Positions 10,719-15,140 of a DNA stretch of 64,000 bases are shown one piece after another. Where the stretch lies: assembly GCA_965214095.1 (NCBI GenBank), contig OZ243938.1:1984001-2048000 (forward strand), read 5' to 3'. This DNA comes from Candidatus Poribacteria bacterium. Lineage in GTDB: Bacteria; Poribacteria; WGA-4E; WGA-3G. Position 1 is the first letter of the stretch. Each line of letters opens with the position of its first letter. The notes under the pieces were generated by a model. The model did not search any database, was not told the origin of the DNA, and saw only the letters and a list, made by a program, of their open reading frames with translations. Made by a program: the position numbers and the translations under genes.

Positions 10719-12177
10719 GGGTGTGTAAAGTTTTTGGCATGAAATTGCCTTGAATGGAGTTCTTGCTTTGCATGTATACACATGGTATCCTAACCTAATA
10801 AATAAATCACAAGTTTAGGAGAGGATACCAATGTCAAGTATATCATTAAGTGTTCATGAAAGCAACGATTACGAAGATGATTTTAGAAAGATTGTTAAAG
10901 AAGTAAACGATCTCTATGGAGACATCAATGTTAACGAGAGTTTATCTTTAGATGATGTTGAAGTTCGTGTTTTTGAAGCATTTCGTTCTCTTGAACAAAA
11001 GTTTTTAGAAATGTGTGTCTCTAAAAAGGCAAGTAAGCAAGAGAGTGAACCTGTTGAATGTCCAGAGTGTAAAGCACCTTGCCGTCCATTACGCAAGCGT
11101 GCGAAACATCTAACAACTCTTTGTGGCAAAATAAATATAAGGCGTTGGGTGTATTGTTGTGAACACGGACATAGGCATGCCCCGTGGGAAGTCAAACAGA
11201 AGTTATCGGATCAATACACGCATCGTGTCGCTGAAGCGATGTGTCGTTTGTCTGCGCGGCTTGACTATAGGGAAGCATCAGAGGAGTTGTCTCATCAAGG
11301 TATAGAAGTGAGTCACACGACACTTCATCAAAGTGTGTGTAAGTTGGCAGAAGATTTGGATGTATGTGAACAAGTAGAGGCTCAAGAACTTAAGGAAAAT
11401 CAGCGTTGGTATGTGAGTTGCGATGGGTGCCACACGAACTCTCCGGATGGGTGGAAAGAGGTGAAAGTGGGGTGTATTTACAGAGATTATCCACAACCTG
11501 TTTCGGGTGGGACCCCGAGTGTGAGAACAGAAAGTATTCGGTATGTTGCGGGTCGTCAAAATGCCGCCGCTTTTGGTAAGAAGTTGTATGCGTTAGCACT
11601 AAAAAGTGGCATCTATCAAAAAGATATAAATACACAAGTGATTGTATTTATCGGAGATGGTGCTGCATGGATTTGGAACCTTTGTAAAGAATACTTTCCT
11701 AATGCTGTTCAGATTGTGGATTATCCACACGCCGTGTCTCATCTGTATGATGTTGCGAAACTTGTGTTTGAAGAGACAGAAACGGAGTTGTTTGAAGCGT
11801 GGACAAAAGAAACAGAATGTTTTCTGCATGATGGGAACATCGCAGAAGTTGCCTCAAGTATTCGTGCCTTAGCCACACAGCACCCAGAGGTGTCAGAGAG
11901 TTTAGAAAGAGAAGCAAGATATTTTGAAAAACATGCCAACCGCATGCAGTATAAAGCGTTTAGAGAAAAAGGGTATATGATTGGAAGCGGTGTGATTGAA
12001 AGTGCGTGTAAACATGTTGTCGGAGAAAGGTGTAAACAAGCAGCTATGAGATGGGAAAAACGGGGCATCAATGTTGTGCTAAAGTGGAGATGTTTGTCAA
12101 AGAATAAGGCTTGGGACAGATATTGGTATCCAAACACAAAAGCAGCATGATGTTCATGCCAAAAACTTTACACACCC
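10719..12177 (+). mobile_element. ISLre2/ISKra4-type (Mutator-like DDE) insertion sequence, copy 1, 1459 bp
   Basis: 25-bp perfect TIR GGGTGTGTAAAGTTTTTGGCATGAA; 9-bp TSD GCTCCTCTA at 10710-10718 and 12178-12186. Confidence 0.95.
10831..12150 (+). CDS. ISLre2/ISKra4-type DDE transposase
   Basis: VSCDG, IGDGAAWIW, DYPHA, IGSGVIESACK..R.K..MRW motifs; N-terminal Zn ribbon. Confidence 0.92.
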   Translation: MSSISLSVHESNDYEDDFRKIVKEVNDLYGDINVNESLSLDDVEVRVFEAFRSLEQKFLEMCVSKKASKQESEPVECPECKAPCRPLRKRAKHLTTLCGKINIRRWVYCCEHGHRHAPWEVKQKLSDQYTHRVAEAMCRLSARLDYREASEELSHQGIEVSHTTLHQSVCKLAEDLDVCEQVEAQELKENQRWYVSCDGCHTNSPDGWKEVKVGCIYRDYPQPVSGGTPSVRTESIRYVAGRQNAAAFGKKLYALALKSGIYQKDINTQVIVFIGDGAAWIWNLCKEYFPNAVQIVDYPHAVSHLYDVAKLVFEETETELFEAWTKETECFLHDGNIAEVASSIRALATQHPEVSESLEREARYFEKHANRMQYKAFREKGYMIGSGVIESACKHVVGERCKQAAMRWEKRGINVVLKWRCLSKNKAWDRYWYPNTKAA

Positions 12178-12193
12178 GCTCCTCTATTTTTTC

Positions 12194-12222
12194 TTGACAT
12201 TTGTTGTCAAATATGTTAGACT
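12194..12222 (+). promoter_or_regulatory. sigma70 promoter of tnpB element
   Basis: TTGACA-17-TAGACT with extended TG. Confidence 0.75.
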
Positions 12223-12227
12223 CTTCT

Positions 12228-12310
12228 CAGCATAGTTTTTTGGTAGAGAGGAAATCCGCTTCGCTTGAGGCGGTCTCTACCATAACTACATTGCCCCGGG
12301 AACTATGCTG
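12228..12310 (+). ncRNA. structured 5' leader RNA of tnpB (three stems plus possible pseudoknot)
   Basis: CAGCATAGTT/AACTATGCTG, TGGTAGAGA/TCTCTACCA, CCGCTTC/GAGGCGG; same topology as 13702-13776. Confidence 0.6.
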
Positions 12311-12322
12311 GAGAAGGAAACT

Positions 12323-13368
12323 ATGCGAACCTATAAATATAAGATCCGCAACCATCCCAAGAACAAACGCTTTGGCAATATGCTGGCAGGAACAGAATGC
12401 AACCCCATCTGACGAAGTTGCTCAAGACGACCAAGAAACATTGGGCTTGGATACCTCGTGACACTTTGGACGCTGCGATTATCCGTGTTGACACTGCTTA
12501 TCAACGTTTCTTTGCGGGTAAAGGCGGAAAACCCAAGTTTAAGCGCAGGCACAGATATAAGTCTGCCAAGTTCCAAAGCGGCTATAAACTTGAAGAAGGC
12601 AGAGTTCGGATATCCTTTAAATCGTGGAACGCCACCACACAATCTCTGAAGTTTGACAAACGTTGGTTTTCTTTCCATCAACACCGTCCTTGGAAGGGGA
12701 ATGTCCGCTATATCCAAATCCTTCTCGATAGTGCAGGTGACTATTGGCTCTATATTATCACAGACGACGATTCTGCCGAACCCTTTACGCACACAGGTGA
12801 GAACGTTGGTATTGATTTTGGTCTGAAGTCGTTTTTGACATTGAGCACTGGTGAAAAGATAGAGTCTCCGCAGTTCCACAAACACTCTTTGAAACAACTT
12901 CGCCAACTGAATAAATCCGTGAGTCGCAAAATCAAAGGGTCTAACAACTGGTTCCGTGCTATCAGACACCTCGCACGGCATTATATCAAGATAGCAAACC
13001 AACGCAGAGATTGGCACTGGAAACTTGCGACAGACTTGTGCAGACGGTTTGATGTGATTGCCACCGAAACGTTGAACCTTGATGGCATGAAGCGGTTGTG
13101 GGGACGGAAAGTCTCCGATCTCGGTTTCTATCAGTTTATTCAATTGTTGAGTTTCAAGTGTTTTAAGCATGATAAACAATTCCATCAAATCGGACAATGG
13201 ACACCGACAACAAAACCTTGTAGCACCTGCGGACATAAAAACGAAAATCTTTCTCTCAATGATAGACAGTGGACATGCACTCAATGCAAATCTCAACATG
13301 ATAGAGATGTCAATGCTGCTATCAATATATTGCGGGCTGCTTATGATCCCGTTGTGGAGCAGATGTGA
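12323..13368 (+). pseudogene. tnpB: TnpB RNA-guided nuclease, frameshifted near the N-terminus
   Basis: ATG 12323 MRTYKYKIRNHPK... stops after 29 codons; rest in another frame (12397-13368) with intact RuvC GIDFG / ATETL / DRDVNAAINI and CSTC/CTQC Zn ribbon. Confidence 0.8.
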
Positions 13369-13446
13369 GACGGATGTTCTCTTCGGAGAACAACGCAAAC
13401 TGCTACGAAGCACAAGCCCCACGCTTTAGCGTGTGGGTGCTATGAC
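13369..13446 (+). ncRNA. predicted omegaRNA (reRNA) scaffold at the tnpB element right end (5' boundary uncertain)
   Basis: Lies between tnpB stop and right end; hairpins GTTCTCTTCGGAGAAC and the right-end hairpin; role inferred from TnpB biology. Confidence 0.6.
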
Positions 13447-13453
13447 AATCGGA

Positions 13454-13482
13454 ATTATATCACGATAGTACAAAAATCGCAA
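13454..13482 (-). promoter_or_regulatory. displaced native argG promoter
   Basis: - strand TTGCGA-17-TATAAT with extended TG; only 7 nt from argG ATG once 10661-13446 is removed. Confidence 0.75.
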
Positions 13483-13606
13483 TAATCATATCTTAGCAAA
13501 AGCATTTAATTGTCGTGATTCAATATTGTTGGAGGGGTTTTTAACCCCAATTCCTGTGCCAAGGTGAATTTTGCTTGCCGAACTGACGTGTATCTCCAAT
13601 TTTTAC

Positions 13607-14129
13607 CAAACGTTGCGGTGTGAAAGCCCAAGTCTTTAGATTTGGGATGAAACACCGCCAAAAACCTTGATTTTATTCAAGTAATGTGGTATACTCTATA
13701 TATCAACTGGATAGGAGAGCAATCATCTACTCTCTGTAGATGTCCTATCCAATCCGATTGCTCGGACAGAGTTGATGTTGATACTCTCAACGATACCACA
13801 TTCGGTTGTATACACTGCAAGTTATGATCCTTGCCAGTCGTTTGTGATGCGTTCTGAAATCGCTTTATGAGATTGTGGCGGTGTTCCCTCCACAACCGCG
13901 AGAAATAACAGAACAATAGACAAAGTATCTGGGACGATTTTGGGGTAATAAAGTAGTCCCTGTTAGTCGTGTCTTGGCGGACACCCCCACAATTGCTGTG
14001 CTGGTAAACTTGGCTTGAACCCAAGTGAGTAGTCTATAAGTCTATAAAAGATGCCCACATCTTCAAAAAACTTCCGAAGTGAGAAGATAACCTAAAGAAC
14101 CCCAATCCTTTAGGTTTGGGAGCCGTCAG
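13607..14129 (+). mobile_element. non-autonomous IS200/IS605 derivative (523 bp)
   Basis: Target TTAC 13603-13606; guide AAAG + hairpin CCCAAGTCTTTAGATTTGGG; right guide GAAC + hairpin CCCAATCCTTTAGGTTTGGG ending TCAG; internal promoter TTGATT-17-TATACT; LNDTTFGCIHC remnant like the TnpB Zn ribbon. Confidence 0.8.
13702..13776 (+). ncRNA. structured pseudoknotted 5' RNA in the non-autonomous element
   Basis: ATCAACT/AGTTGAT, GGATAGGA/TCCTATCC, CATCTAC/GTAGATG, pseudoknot GAGCAAT/ATTGCTC. Confidence 0.65.
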
Positions 14130-14297
14130 AAAAGGTTTAGTCCGAAGTATCTTCAGAAAACCTTTACGACATTAAATGAATATGGATTTGAAGTAGGACT
14201 ACGTAGACTTGAAGCGGATGATATTGAGATGATCAGACAATTAGAACGAATAATGCGACAGAAACGACCTACCCAACGAAATAATCGCAAAAATTAA
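14130..14297 (+). pseudogene. 3' remnant of a hypothetical gene truncated at the IS right end
   Basis: Open frame KRFSPKYLQKTFTTLNEYGFEVGLRRLEADD...* starts exactly at the element boundary with no start codon. Confidence 0.5.
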
Positions 14298-14333
14298 ACT
14301 CTTGAAGGAGAAAATAATCTCTTGGAGGAACAA

Positions 14334-15140
14334 GTGAAAGTTATACCCACAGTTGTGTTAATTTTTATTTTATGCACGGTTGTATCCTGTGTTCAAACAA
14401 TAGAGGCACCTGTTAACAAATATGAGGGACCAAGACCACAAACGCCTGAGACTATTCTTGAAGCATTTAAAGATGTTCCCAGTAAATGGCTGCGAAGAAG
14501 TTATGAGAAATATCCTGCAACTAAATGGTTCCAAATACTTATTGATAAAGGTATTGTGATTGAAGATTCTGATGATTTTGATCAGTATCTGATGCTGCGT
14601 GAGCGTTTAATACAGGAGGAGCGTAGATATTTATCTGAACCAGATATGTGGCTGCCAAAAAAATATTTCGGAAAAACATACAATAGCTGGGAAACCTATA
14701 AAGATGCTTTCATTGACAGAAAAATTTGGGAATACCAACAAATAAAAACTGCAAAACAGGCAGACCCTTCTGTATACCGAGTTAAATTCCTAGGCCCCGA
14801 TGGTAGAACCGTTCTTCCGCTTCCCGAAAAAAGCGTTGTCATTAAGAGAGTACATCGGGGATATGCTGGAAATAGAGGAACAAGTAGCAATGCTAAACTT
14901 TCTGAGCAACAAATGTTTGACATCGTATATAAAGGGAAACACCCACGGGGTTGGAAAGTCGTTTATATTGATAATATGAGCAACATTCTTCCTGAAAGAC
15001 CGACACCGATCAGCCGAGAGGAACTTGGACTTCCCCCTGATGTGCCGTGGCCCCCAAAAAGCCGAGCACACTTAGAGCGTATTTTTGAGGAAGTAAAACA
15101 AGGTCGCTATAACAACTATAACAACTTTGGGGATAATTAA
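14334..15140 (+). CDS. hypothetical lipoprotein
   Basis: GGAGGA RBS before GTG; hydrophobic signal ending VVSC. Confidence 0.7.
   Translation: MKVIPTVVLIFILCTVVSCVQTIEAPVNKYEGPRPQTPETILEAFKDVPSKWLRRSYEKYPATKWFQILIDKGIVIEDSDDFDQYLMLRERLIQEERRYLSEPDMWLPKKYFGKTYNSWETYKDAFIDRKIWEYQQIKTAKQADPSVYRVKFLGPDGRTVLPLPEKSVVIKRVHRGYAGNRGTSSNAKLSEQQMFDIVYKGKHPRGWKVVYIDNMSNILPERPTPISREELGLPPDVPWPPKSRAHLERIFEEVKQGRYNNYNNFGDN

Follow-up and report, generated by a model that had tools for sequence, protein, structure and literature searches.

The two IS200/IS605-family elements located in the window C1:1984001-2048000 (the whole 64-kb stretch of DNA analysed, part of a Poribacteria genome of 5.2 Mb and 41% G+C), hereafter element 1 and element 2, both carry just downstream of their promoters a 5' leader with the same predicted architecture, i.e. 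a three-way junction made of a closing helix (P1), a P2-P3 arm with a 6-7-nt bulge on its 5' side, and a P4 hairpin. The 5' strand of P1 can pair with either of two tandem copies of the same 3' strand and, in the element-1 type, the tnpB start codon lies inside the second of them. Our reading, held with moderate confidence, is that these sequences represent a cis-acting bistable 5' leader family of tnpB-only elements that would protect the 5' end of the transcript and gate the translation of the nuclease. New here are the leader architecture and the decoy-versus-start-codon design; cis-regulatory leaders of transposon genes as such are known.

The helices that an earlier note on this DNA had named for both elements were found in place (Table 1), and each fold starts 6-7 nt after its -10 box, close to the distance that the note had given. 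A -35 box is located 17 nt upstream of each -10 box. The nested part of the structure corresponded to the minimum free energy fold calculated with RNAfold both in element 1 (12225-12325; -39.7 kcal/mol, z -4.4) and in element 2 (13700-13790; -32.1 kcal/mol, z -4.3), and shuffled sequences never folded as stably in either case (0/200 and 0/200). R1, a covariance model for which element 1 and its intact paralogue were the sole input (P1, P2 and P3, 25 pairs), returned element 2 as its best non-self match in the 64-kb window (26.7 bits, E = 0.0024), and it also detected the leader of F41, one of three tnpB families of the same genome (F41, F54 and F29) named after the identity of their TnpB proteins (41%, 54% and 29%, respectively). 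A second model, R2, derived from 21 element-1-type leaders and including no element-2 sequence, scored 68.7 bits (9.5e-14) with element 1, 32.9 bits (E = 7e-7) with element 2, and 27-37 bits with three F41 leaders. This cross-detection supported the topology that the earlier note had proposed to be shared, and it confirmed that the likeness of the two folds exceeds chance.

Reading of related leaders revealed that the 6-nt loop of P4 pairs entirely with the bulge of the P2-P3 arm, giving a bulge-loop kissing helix and hence a pseudoknot. The pairing of the bulge had been proposed before and is upheld by covariation, but its 3' strand is the loop of the P4 hairpin rather than the free junction that had been assumed. 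The P4 stem takes forms such as CCGA/TCGG, CTAA/TTAG and CAGA/TCTG in related leaders, and both P4 and one pseudoknot pair are disrupted in the decayed copy of element 1 present in the window. The whole fold comprises 75-85 nt, with variable junction strands of only 0, 4 and 1-2 nt. Because MAFFT alignments across clades put the helices out of register, per-clade alignments and covariance models were used. In the initial set of 21 element-1-type leaders, 94.8% of the alignment cells were paired, compared with 34-45% in slid controls, and in 49 distinct leaders of this type the values were 96.3% and 32-44%. Changes on both sides were observed in 23 of the 34 pairs of the 49-leader alignment, a result that none of 500 column shuffles reached, and compensation affected all six pseudoknot pairs (98.3% paired), 6/7 pairs of P3 and 3/4 pairs of P4. 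The same held for clade 2 (21 leaders, with P2 GGCAGACA/TGTCTGCC), where 95.1% of the cells were paired versus 27-43% in slid controls, and compensated pairs numbered 5/7 in the pseudoknot, 7/7 in P1 and 7/7 in P3. The clade-2 alignment excludes six leaders. Three of them (L098, L104 and L116) contain a conserved, GC-rich insertion of 31 nt at the tip of P3, and L111, L118 and L119 (the last being equal to L118 over the extracted stretch) have 25 nt inserted in the P4 loop, 3' of the pseudoknot strand; the remaining fold is intact in all of them. The F54 and F29 families of the same genome, which gave no match with R2, lack P3, and inspection by eye suggested that the terminal loop of P2 itself pairs downstream.

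The helices differ markedly in how freely they vary. The pseudoknot is hypervariable (ATACTAC/GTAGTAT, ATTCCAT/ATGGAAT, TGTCAAG/CTTGACA and TGAACAG/CTGTTCA, among many others), and therefore the AAT/ATTGC core common to the two window copies, to which the earlier note had attached meaning, is a coincidence. P2 is nearly invariant in the element-1 type; seven of its eight pairs are the same in 47-49 of the 49 leaders, and 45 leaders have AU at the eighth, where the other 4 show a compensated change to GC.

All clades have a tandem second copy of the P1 3' strand, located after the first, that offers the 5' strand an alternative helix, P1'. Element-1-type leaders show the arrangement AACTATGCTG GGAGTA AACTATGCG, whose spacer corresponds to the Shine-Dalgarno sequence and whose second copy includes the tnpB start codon. 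The F41 family has TGTAATGCG-AAGGATA-TGTAATGCG, with the start codon of tnpB again inside the second copy, and the copies of clade 2 are adjacent (ACGTGAT-ACGTGAA) and end 5-6 nt ahead of the ATG. The same tandem layout was recognised by direct reading in F41-type leaders (L132, L134 and L135) and in one of the F54 type (L095). In the element-1 type, P1' spans tnpB positions -5 to +3, and the conserved GCAU at the 5' end of the transcript is complementary to the AUGC at the start codon. P1' was paired in 97.4% of the cells in the element-1 type, compared with 21-42% when slid, with 6/8 pairs compensated, and in 97.6% of the cells in clade 2, with 6/6 pairs compensated. Hence the element-1 type displays the conserved pairing over the start codon that is to be expected of a translation-masking leader, and the location of the second copy at the translation start appears to be a conserved design feature.

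The two alternative helices were also compared energetically, in calculations that ignore the pseudoknot. According to nearest-neighbour energies, the P1 and P1' states differ little in stability; the P1 state is the more stable one in 45/49 element-1-type leaders, by a mean of 3.2 kcal/mol, and the mean ensemble probabilities of P1 and P1' were 0.65 and 0.32 in the element-1 type (n = 49) and 0.64 and 0.16 in clade 2. Two further pairings gave negative results. The extension of P1 over the ribosome-binding site that the earlier note had envisaged amounted to 3.4 bp in cognate combinations versus 2.9 bp in non-cognate ones, and showed no covariation. Since the bases involved lie 5' of the predicted +1, such a pairing would be confined to read-through transcripts, and the test for it was negative. 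Likewise, a repeat of the 5' strand within the coding region of element-1-type elements ("strand 4") gave equal cognate and control distributions.

The earlier note had suggested searching related genomes with a covariance model and listing the downstream genes. The search yielded further homologues with strong covariation, and the list consisted mostly of tnpB genes, with a GIY-YIG nuclease gene in two of 30 loci. Loci encoding relatives of the local TnpB were all found in Poribacteria assemblies (79/79). When 72 Poribacteria tnpB loci were searched with R1 at E <= 1, 52 matches were obtained, 51 of them on the + strand and located just 5' of tnpB in 51/72 loci. R2 was searched against 151 sampled Poribacteria genomes and six outside loci, and at E <= 0.001 it matched in 96/151 genomes, with up to 26 matches per genome. 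The matches were distributed by family as 80/99 in f1, 15/26 in f3 and 0/25 in seven others, and by genus as 4/22. The genome under study harbors 14 full leaders and one truncated copy, the full ones belonging to element 1 and its paralogue, element 2 (three copies), F41 (three), F54 (three), F29 (two) and a mini-element (C1:80090-80180, - strand). None of the six tnpB loci from outside Poribacteria (three from cyanobacteria and one each from Rhodothermus, Bacteroides and Geoalkalibacter, drawn from 2187 matching plasmid records) matched R2 (best E 0.28; protein identity 37-40%), a sample too small to imply absence, and the fold was not visible by eye in any of them. In the cyanobacterial plasmid loci from Aulosira (L197), Nostoc PCC 7120 (L198) and Chroococcidiopsis (L202), whose TnpB proteins show ~38-40% identity, a -10-like box lies ~7 nt before the ATG, which suggests leaderless mRNAs and an expression design unlike that of the Poribacteria elements. 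As far as sampled, the leader appears to be restricted to some Poribacteria, which are uncultivated sponge symbionts.

When 30 loci returned by R2 were chosen by the RNA model alone, tblastn located a tnpB gene directly 3' of the leader in 20 of them, including TnpBs only 39-45% identical to the local one. Four others (L160, L168, L173 and L174) bear a very divergent tnpB, which Pfam confirmed for L160 and L168, L173 and L174 being assigned by eye as near-identical to L168. Two (L156 and L162) have no open frame, and two (L153 and L172) end at a contig edge. In the remaining two, from two Poribacteria genomes of another family, the leader precedes a GIY-YIG nuclease gene (PF01541, 1.8e-6 and 3.1e-5; L171:567-1587, - strand, and L175:68-1024). 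The GIY-YIG version keeps the tandem copies as AGCAATAC-ACTTT-AGCAATAC; its old ATG is now ATA, a change that both the first copy and the 5' strand match, and translation would begin at a start codon located 27 nt downstream.

Several observations suggest that the conserved structure is formed by RNA. The promoters of the 49 element-1-type leaders are all close to consensus, with mean scores of 5.6/6 for the -35 box and 4.8/6 for the -10 box and spacers of 17-18 nt, and the distance from the -10 box to the first conserved paired G is 7 nt in 40/49, so the predicted +1 is the first or second nucleotide of P1. This would place the transcription start of element 1 at A12229 and that of element 2 at A13702. 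Moreover, P1, P1', P3 and the pseudoknot contain many G-U pairs, which would be A-C mismatches on the opposite strand, which argues against identical protein half-sites in duplex DNA. The alternative that the top strand of the left end folds as single-stranded DNA during TnpA-mediated excision or integration is in agreement with the location of the fold on the strand used by IS200/IS605 elements, at a distance of 55-60 nt to the TnpA hairpin, and with its maintenance in non-autonomous derivatives, which usually retain only sequences required in cis; DNA also tolerates G-T pairs. However, the register of the fold is fixed to the promoter and not to the hairpin, the start codon takes part in one of the pairings, and before the GIY-YIG genes the fold is accompanied by a promoter but by no left-end hairpin (none was seen in the 110 nt upstream of the L171 leader, and L175 begins at the contig end). 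In addition, the autonomous IS605-type element of the genome (tnpA plus tnpB, four copies; e.g. C1:81560-82200, - strand), which bears the same left hairpin as element 2, has an AT-rich leader without such a fold. The strand bias of the G-U pairs, the promoter register, the GIY-YIG context and the fold-less autonomous element thus favour RNA, and we regard a single-stranded DNA structure as very improbable. As a separate observation, the -35 box of element 1 is one half of the palindrome TTGACA-N4-TGTCAA (window positions 12194-12209), which recurs with N4-6 spacers in many element-1-type promoters and could be an operator or form a hairpin within read-through RNA.

The leader is also present in elements that encode no protein. 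Fifteen element-2-type leaders from ten genomes were parsed, and P2 was fully paired (8/8) in 14 of them, the bulge-loop helix (6/6) in 13 and P1 (7/7) in 12, with the second copy wholly complementary to the 5' strand in 12/15. Their 5' strand occurs in five sequence versions, each with matching changes in its partners. In this type a local hairpin arises between the second copy and a repeat of the 5' strand (5/5 in 14/15, the score of L187 being an artefact of an unrelated hairpin), and this hairpin follows P1 by 0 nt in 12/15, where it could stack on it. Selection thus preserves the leader in elements without any protein, and therefore the leader must do more than gate TnpB translation.

That the fold might be a pure 5' stabiliser, shielding an mRNA or guide-RNA precursor from 5'-end-dependent decay, with the second copy being a spare or stacked helix, has to be considered at this point. 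Terminal stem-loops at the 5' end are known to stabilise bacterial mRNAs, e.g. the ompA leader. P1 begins at the predicted +1 in 49/49 leaders, the adjoining hairpin of the element-2 type would bury the 5' end within a quasi-continuous helix, and both the retention of the leader in protein-less elements and its presence ahead of an unrelated GIY-YIG gene are in agreement with such a role. Nevertheless, a plain hairpin would suffice for protection, and the exact position of the second copy at the start codon and its covariation in the element-1 and F41 types are left unexplained, which makes stabilisation as the only function unlikely, if far from negligible. In the bistable leader that we propose, protection is one of two activities.

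A third explanation would be a sensor RNA in which a ligand, a protein or temperature stabilises the junction and chooses between P1 (on) and P1' (off), in the manner of the add riboswitch. The layout does resemble that of translational on-switches, with a junction, a long-range loop contact, a switching P1 helix and a platform that carries the start codon, and the near-invariance of P2 within a clade hints at sequence-specific recognition. Against this, the junction strands are unconserved as well as short and the pseudoknot sequence is free to vary, so no candidate ligand pocket is left, and no Rfam riboswitch was matched. Furthermore, the fact that one P2 sequence serves TnpBs only 40% identical and a GIY-YIG gene speaks against a protein of the element itself binding there specifically. 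We therefore consider such a sensor quite improbable. The failure to match known RNAs was general, in line with the earlier note, which had recognised no named motif; Rfam gave no match at E <= 10 for positions 12000-14400, and the only hits at gathering scores in the whole window were three tRNAs. Riboswitches were disfavoured also because unpaired pocket nucleotides are not conserved and bulge and loop vary freely, and small self-cleaving ribozymes (hammerhead, twister, twister-sister, pistol, hatchet and HDV-like) because there was neither an Rfam match nor a CUGAUGA/GAAA-type core in the junction strands.

The promoter-proximal location of a compact fold with a pseudoknot would also fit a self-cleaving ribozyme or a put-like antitermination RNA allowing read-through of the guide-RNA region and the right end, and transcription presumably must pass several stable hairpins into the flank. 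Nonetheless, there is no conserved unpaired core, no ribozyme family matches, nothing 5' of the fold needs removal, and the duplicated 3' strand would be left unexplained by either activity, so the chance of either is in our opinion slight indeed. Of the classes offered by the earlier note, a conserved regulatory or protective RNA remains the best, whereas its riboswitch and ribozyme options found no matching model and are at odds with the short, variable junctions. Its statement that the leader is not the omega-RNA was borne out, since the fold lies at the wrong end of the transcript for it, between the promoter and the start codon. That the RNA is conserved and structured is backed by covariation in each of its helices and in the pseudoknot.

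Several points weigh against a bistable leader that gates translation. The nearest-neighbour energies favour the open state, and no trigger that shifts the balance was found. The covariation between the second copy and the 5' strand could stem from a process that keeps the direct repeats identical, although we know of no such process. The model leaves the near-invariance of P2 within clades unexplained, and both the RNA and its start site are themselves predictions from sequence; positions 12100-14200 of the window are covered by four sequencing runs of a single study, and none of them is recorded as RNA. Finally, compensatory changes preserve the fold in protein-less element-2-type elements, and the GIY-YIG version has its second copy well upstream of the start codon, and on these two grounds translation gating is not the sole function.

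The leader was compared with known RNAs that control access to a start site. In IS10 and IS50 (fold-back inhibition) and in the hok mRNA (tac/ucb/fbi), alternative pairings of the 5' region set the start-site access of a potentially harmful gene. Those systems tell native transcripts from read-through ones, or rely on processing of the 3' end. The Poribacteria leader seems similar to them in its alternative long-range pairing, whereas its test for a read-through-specific pairing was negative. In purine riboswitches the junction holds a conserved ligand pocket, and the kissing contact is formed between two loops. The leader described here differs from them in having almost no junction nucleotides, a loop-bulge pairing of free sequence and no Rfam match. 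With the add adenine riboswitch of Vibrio vulnificus (PMC4464220), it shares a three-way junction, a long-range loop lock and a P1 helix that competes with start-region pairing. In Salmonella IS200, a stem-loop over the Shine-Dalgarno sequence represses tnpA 20-fold, according to PMC5435999. Both are left-end leaders with structure over the initiation region, repression being only proposed here. IS200 relies on a simple local stem-loop together with an antisense RNA, Hfq and a left-end terminator, whereas the Poribacteria leader concerns a tnpB gene, contains a kissing three-way junction and would mask the start codon with the 5' end of the transcript, for which a decoy competes. The leader and the IS200 tnpA 5' UTR (5' untranslated region) are related neither in sequence nor through Rfam.

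Two other RNAs are encoded by TnpB transposons. The TnpB omega-RNA/reRNA (PMC10097598 and PMC8612924) is also pseudoknotted, but it is located 3', where it overlaps both the right end and the last part of tnpB, and it carries the guide, while the Poribacteria leader would be the first 75-85 nt of the transcript. The group I introns of IStrons (bioRxiv 10.1101/2023.11.20.567912) are likewise structured left-side RNAs of TnpB elements with a second function; they are self-splicing and several hundred nucleotides long, in contrast to the much smaller leader. An IStron intron was rejected as an identity of the leader, with the size of the fold and the absence of an Intron_gpI match as grounds. Taken together, these comparisons suggest that the leader works like IS200-type translation masking and looks like a purine-riboswitch-style junction without the conserved pocket. 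No description of the fold was found in the literature on TnpB/IS605 leaders and Poribacteria tnpB, supplementary files, which could hold motif lists, lying outside that search.

Table 1. Positions, within the 64-kb window, of the leaders and of the other features of elements 1 and 2.
Feature	Positions	Strand	Description
UPF0236-family transposase-like ORF	10831..12150	+	439 aa; Pfam PF06782, 2.9e-8
Element 1 promoter	12194..12222	+	-35 TTGACA 12194-12199, 17-nt spacer, -10 TAGACT 12217-12222
Element 1 leader fold	12228..12310	+	P1 12228-12237/12301-12310, P2 12242-12249/12274-12281, P3 12256-12262/12267-12273
Element 1 bulge	12250-12255	+	pairs with loop ATTGCC 12290-12295 of degenerate P4 12286-12289/12296-12299
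Element 1 Shine-Dalgarno-like sequence	12310-12317	+	GGAGAAGG; from the sequence
Element 1 second copy of P1 3' strand	12319-12327	+	AACTATGCG; holds tnpB ATG 12323-12325
Element 1 decayed tnpB	12323..13368	+	tblastn and ORF list; longest open frame 12397-13368
Element 1 right end	13369..13447	+	omega-RNA-like stem-loops, right-end hairpin ~13417-13439, terminus ...GCTATGACA at 13447
Element 2 left end	13603..13646	+	target TTAC 13603-13606, start 13607, TnpA-type hairpin CCCAAGTCTTTAGATTTGGG 13627-13646
Element 2 promoter	13667..13695	+	-35 TTGATT 13667-13672, 17-nt spacer, -10 TATACT 13690-13695
Element 2 leader fold	13702..13776	+	P1 13702-13708/13770-13776, P2 13709-13716/13743-13750, P3 13724-13730/13736-13742
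Element 2 bulge	13717-13723	+	GAGCAAT; bases 13718-13723 pair with P4 loop ATTGCT 13757-13762
Element 2 P4	13753-13756/13763-13766	+	parse of 15 element-2-type leaders
Element 2 second copy of P1 3' strand	13777-13782	+	GTTGAT; local hairpin GTTGA 13777-13781/TCAAC 13787-13791, a repeat of the 5' strand
Element 2 remaining body	13792..14129	+	conserved, non-coding; right-end hairpin CCCCAATCCTTTAGGTTTGGG 14100-14120; end ...GCCGTCA(G) ~14128

The description of the window as containing two IS200/IS605 elements holds as regards family membership, but neither of them carries a functional gene; element 1 is a decayed tnpB-only (IS1341-type) copy, and element 2 is protein-less and lacks tnpB altogether. 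The tnpB of element 1 is frameshifted, tblastn aligning residues 1-21 at 12323-12385 and residues 44-372 at 12376-13362 in another frame (82.7% identical to the intact paralogue). The paralogue (C1:325964-327210) encodes a TnpB of 373 aa with the Pfam domains PF01385 OrfB_IS605 (1.9e-23) and PF07282 Cas12f1-like_TNB (9e-19), the latter a zinc ribbon. The right boundary of element 1 was set where the alignment with the 3' end of the paralogue loses similarity, at GCTATGACA, and the stem-loops of this end are probably the omega-RNA, judging from their position. Comparison with the paralogue also showed that a separate insertion sequence, whose transposase-like ORF occupies 10831-12150, took the place of the left-end hairpin of element 1, the left end being reduced to ...CCCGCTCC...

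Element 2 is ~520 bp long (13607 to ~14128) and is present in the genome as three full copies and one truncated copy. Its boundaries were obtained from the three genome copies together with copies in other genomes, TTTAC precedes every aligned copy, and the promoter is kept in all of them. The left and right subterminal hairpins are similar, and insertion took place 3' of TTAC without inverted repeats. There is no + strand ORF of at least 50 aa; copies of the body show 70-96% identity with indels that break the frames, and the non-coding body is probably a guide-RNA scaffold. A BLAST search of its own genome for a tnpB partner of the 3' body matched only the end hairpins. Relatives of ~470-550 bp are found in other genomes of the same genus (G023, with four copies, G005, G012, G069, G074, G030, G087 and G064). 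The autonomous tnpA-tnpB element with which element 2 shares its left hairpin probably mobilises the tnpB-only and protein-less elements in trans by supplying TnpA.

Additional mobile sequences were noted in the same genome. A further protein-less mini-element (C1:79770-80300, - strand), located directly downstream of a copy of the autonomous tnpA-tnpB element, has a leader with an element-1 P2 (R2, E = 1.4e-3). A 415-bp protein-less element agrees with the element-1 type in its left and right ends and its promoter, but its leader is of another kind and lacks the three-way junction; it is present in four copies (C1:781048-781434, L019; 959174-959560, L017; ~3279134-3279520, L015; and 5082181-5082566, L012) whose near-identity suggests recent mobility. 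Contig C2 (32 kb) has 64% G+C compared with 41% of the main contig and is probably foreign to the genome bin.

In the mechanism that we propose, a strong promoter just within the left end would give rise to an RNA that folds from its first nucleotide into the three-way junction. Its 5' strand would have mutually exclusive partners. Pairing with the proximal decoy copy would form P1, close the junction and leave the start site free, and pairing with the downstream second copy would form P1' and mask the tnpB start site. The 5' triphosphate end, buried in a helix of a compact, tertiary-locked fold, would stabilise the transcript against 5'-end-dependent decay and, in the protein-coding versions, the exchange between P1 and P1' would limit translation of the nuclease mRNA; it is conceivable that the kissing helix is coupled to the register of P1. 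The leader may then be a portable module of promoter plus 5' structure for the transcripts of selfish nucleases and of guide-RNA-only transposons. The fold with its covariation, the two alternative pairings, the promoter geometry and the genomic contexts are observed, and we infer the transcription start, the block of initiation in the P1' state, the stabilising effect and a factor that shifts the balance between the two states. Because the hosts are uncultivated sponge symbionts, tests in heterologous systems are required.

A bolder proposal, which we hold to be rather unlikely, is that of a portable riboregulator class whose junction and kissing lock sense a host protein, an ion, temperature or the RNA-decay status and set P1 versus P1' accordingly. 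If it were true, the expression of selfish nucleases (TnpB and GIY-YIG) and guide-RNA production by protein-less transposons would be tied to the state of the host, and a riboswitch-like layer of control would exist over RNA-guided transposon nucleases.

Cas12 descends from TnpB nucleases, which are now under development as genome editors of small size. Much work has been devoted to the guide RNA of TnpB, but little is known about how expression of the nuclease is restrained. The exchange between a decoy and the start codon on a compact tertiary fold would be a covariation-backed RNA solution at the other end of the transcript, and the same module serves TnpBs that are only 40% identical to one another (and a few more divergent), a GIY-YIG nuclease and, presumably, protein-less guide-RNA elements. 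For RNA structural biology, the leader would provide a natural example of a three-way junction with bulge-loop kissing and many compensated variants, and it offers transposon biology a testable hypothesis on the post-transcriptional control of TnpB.

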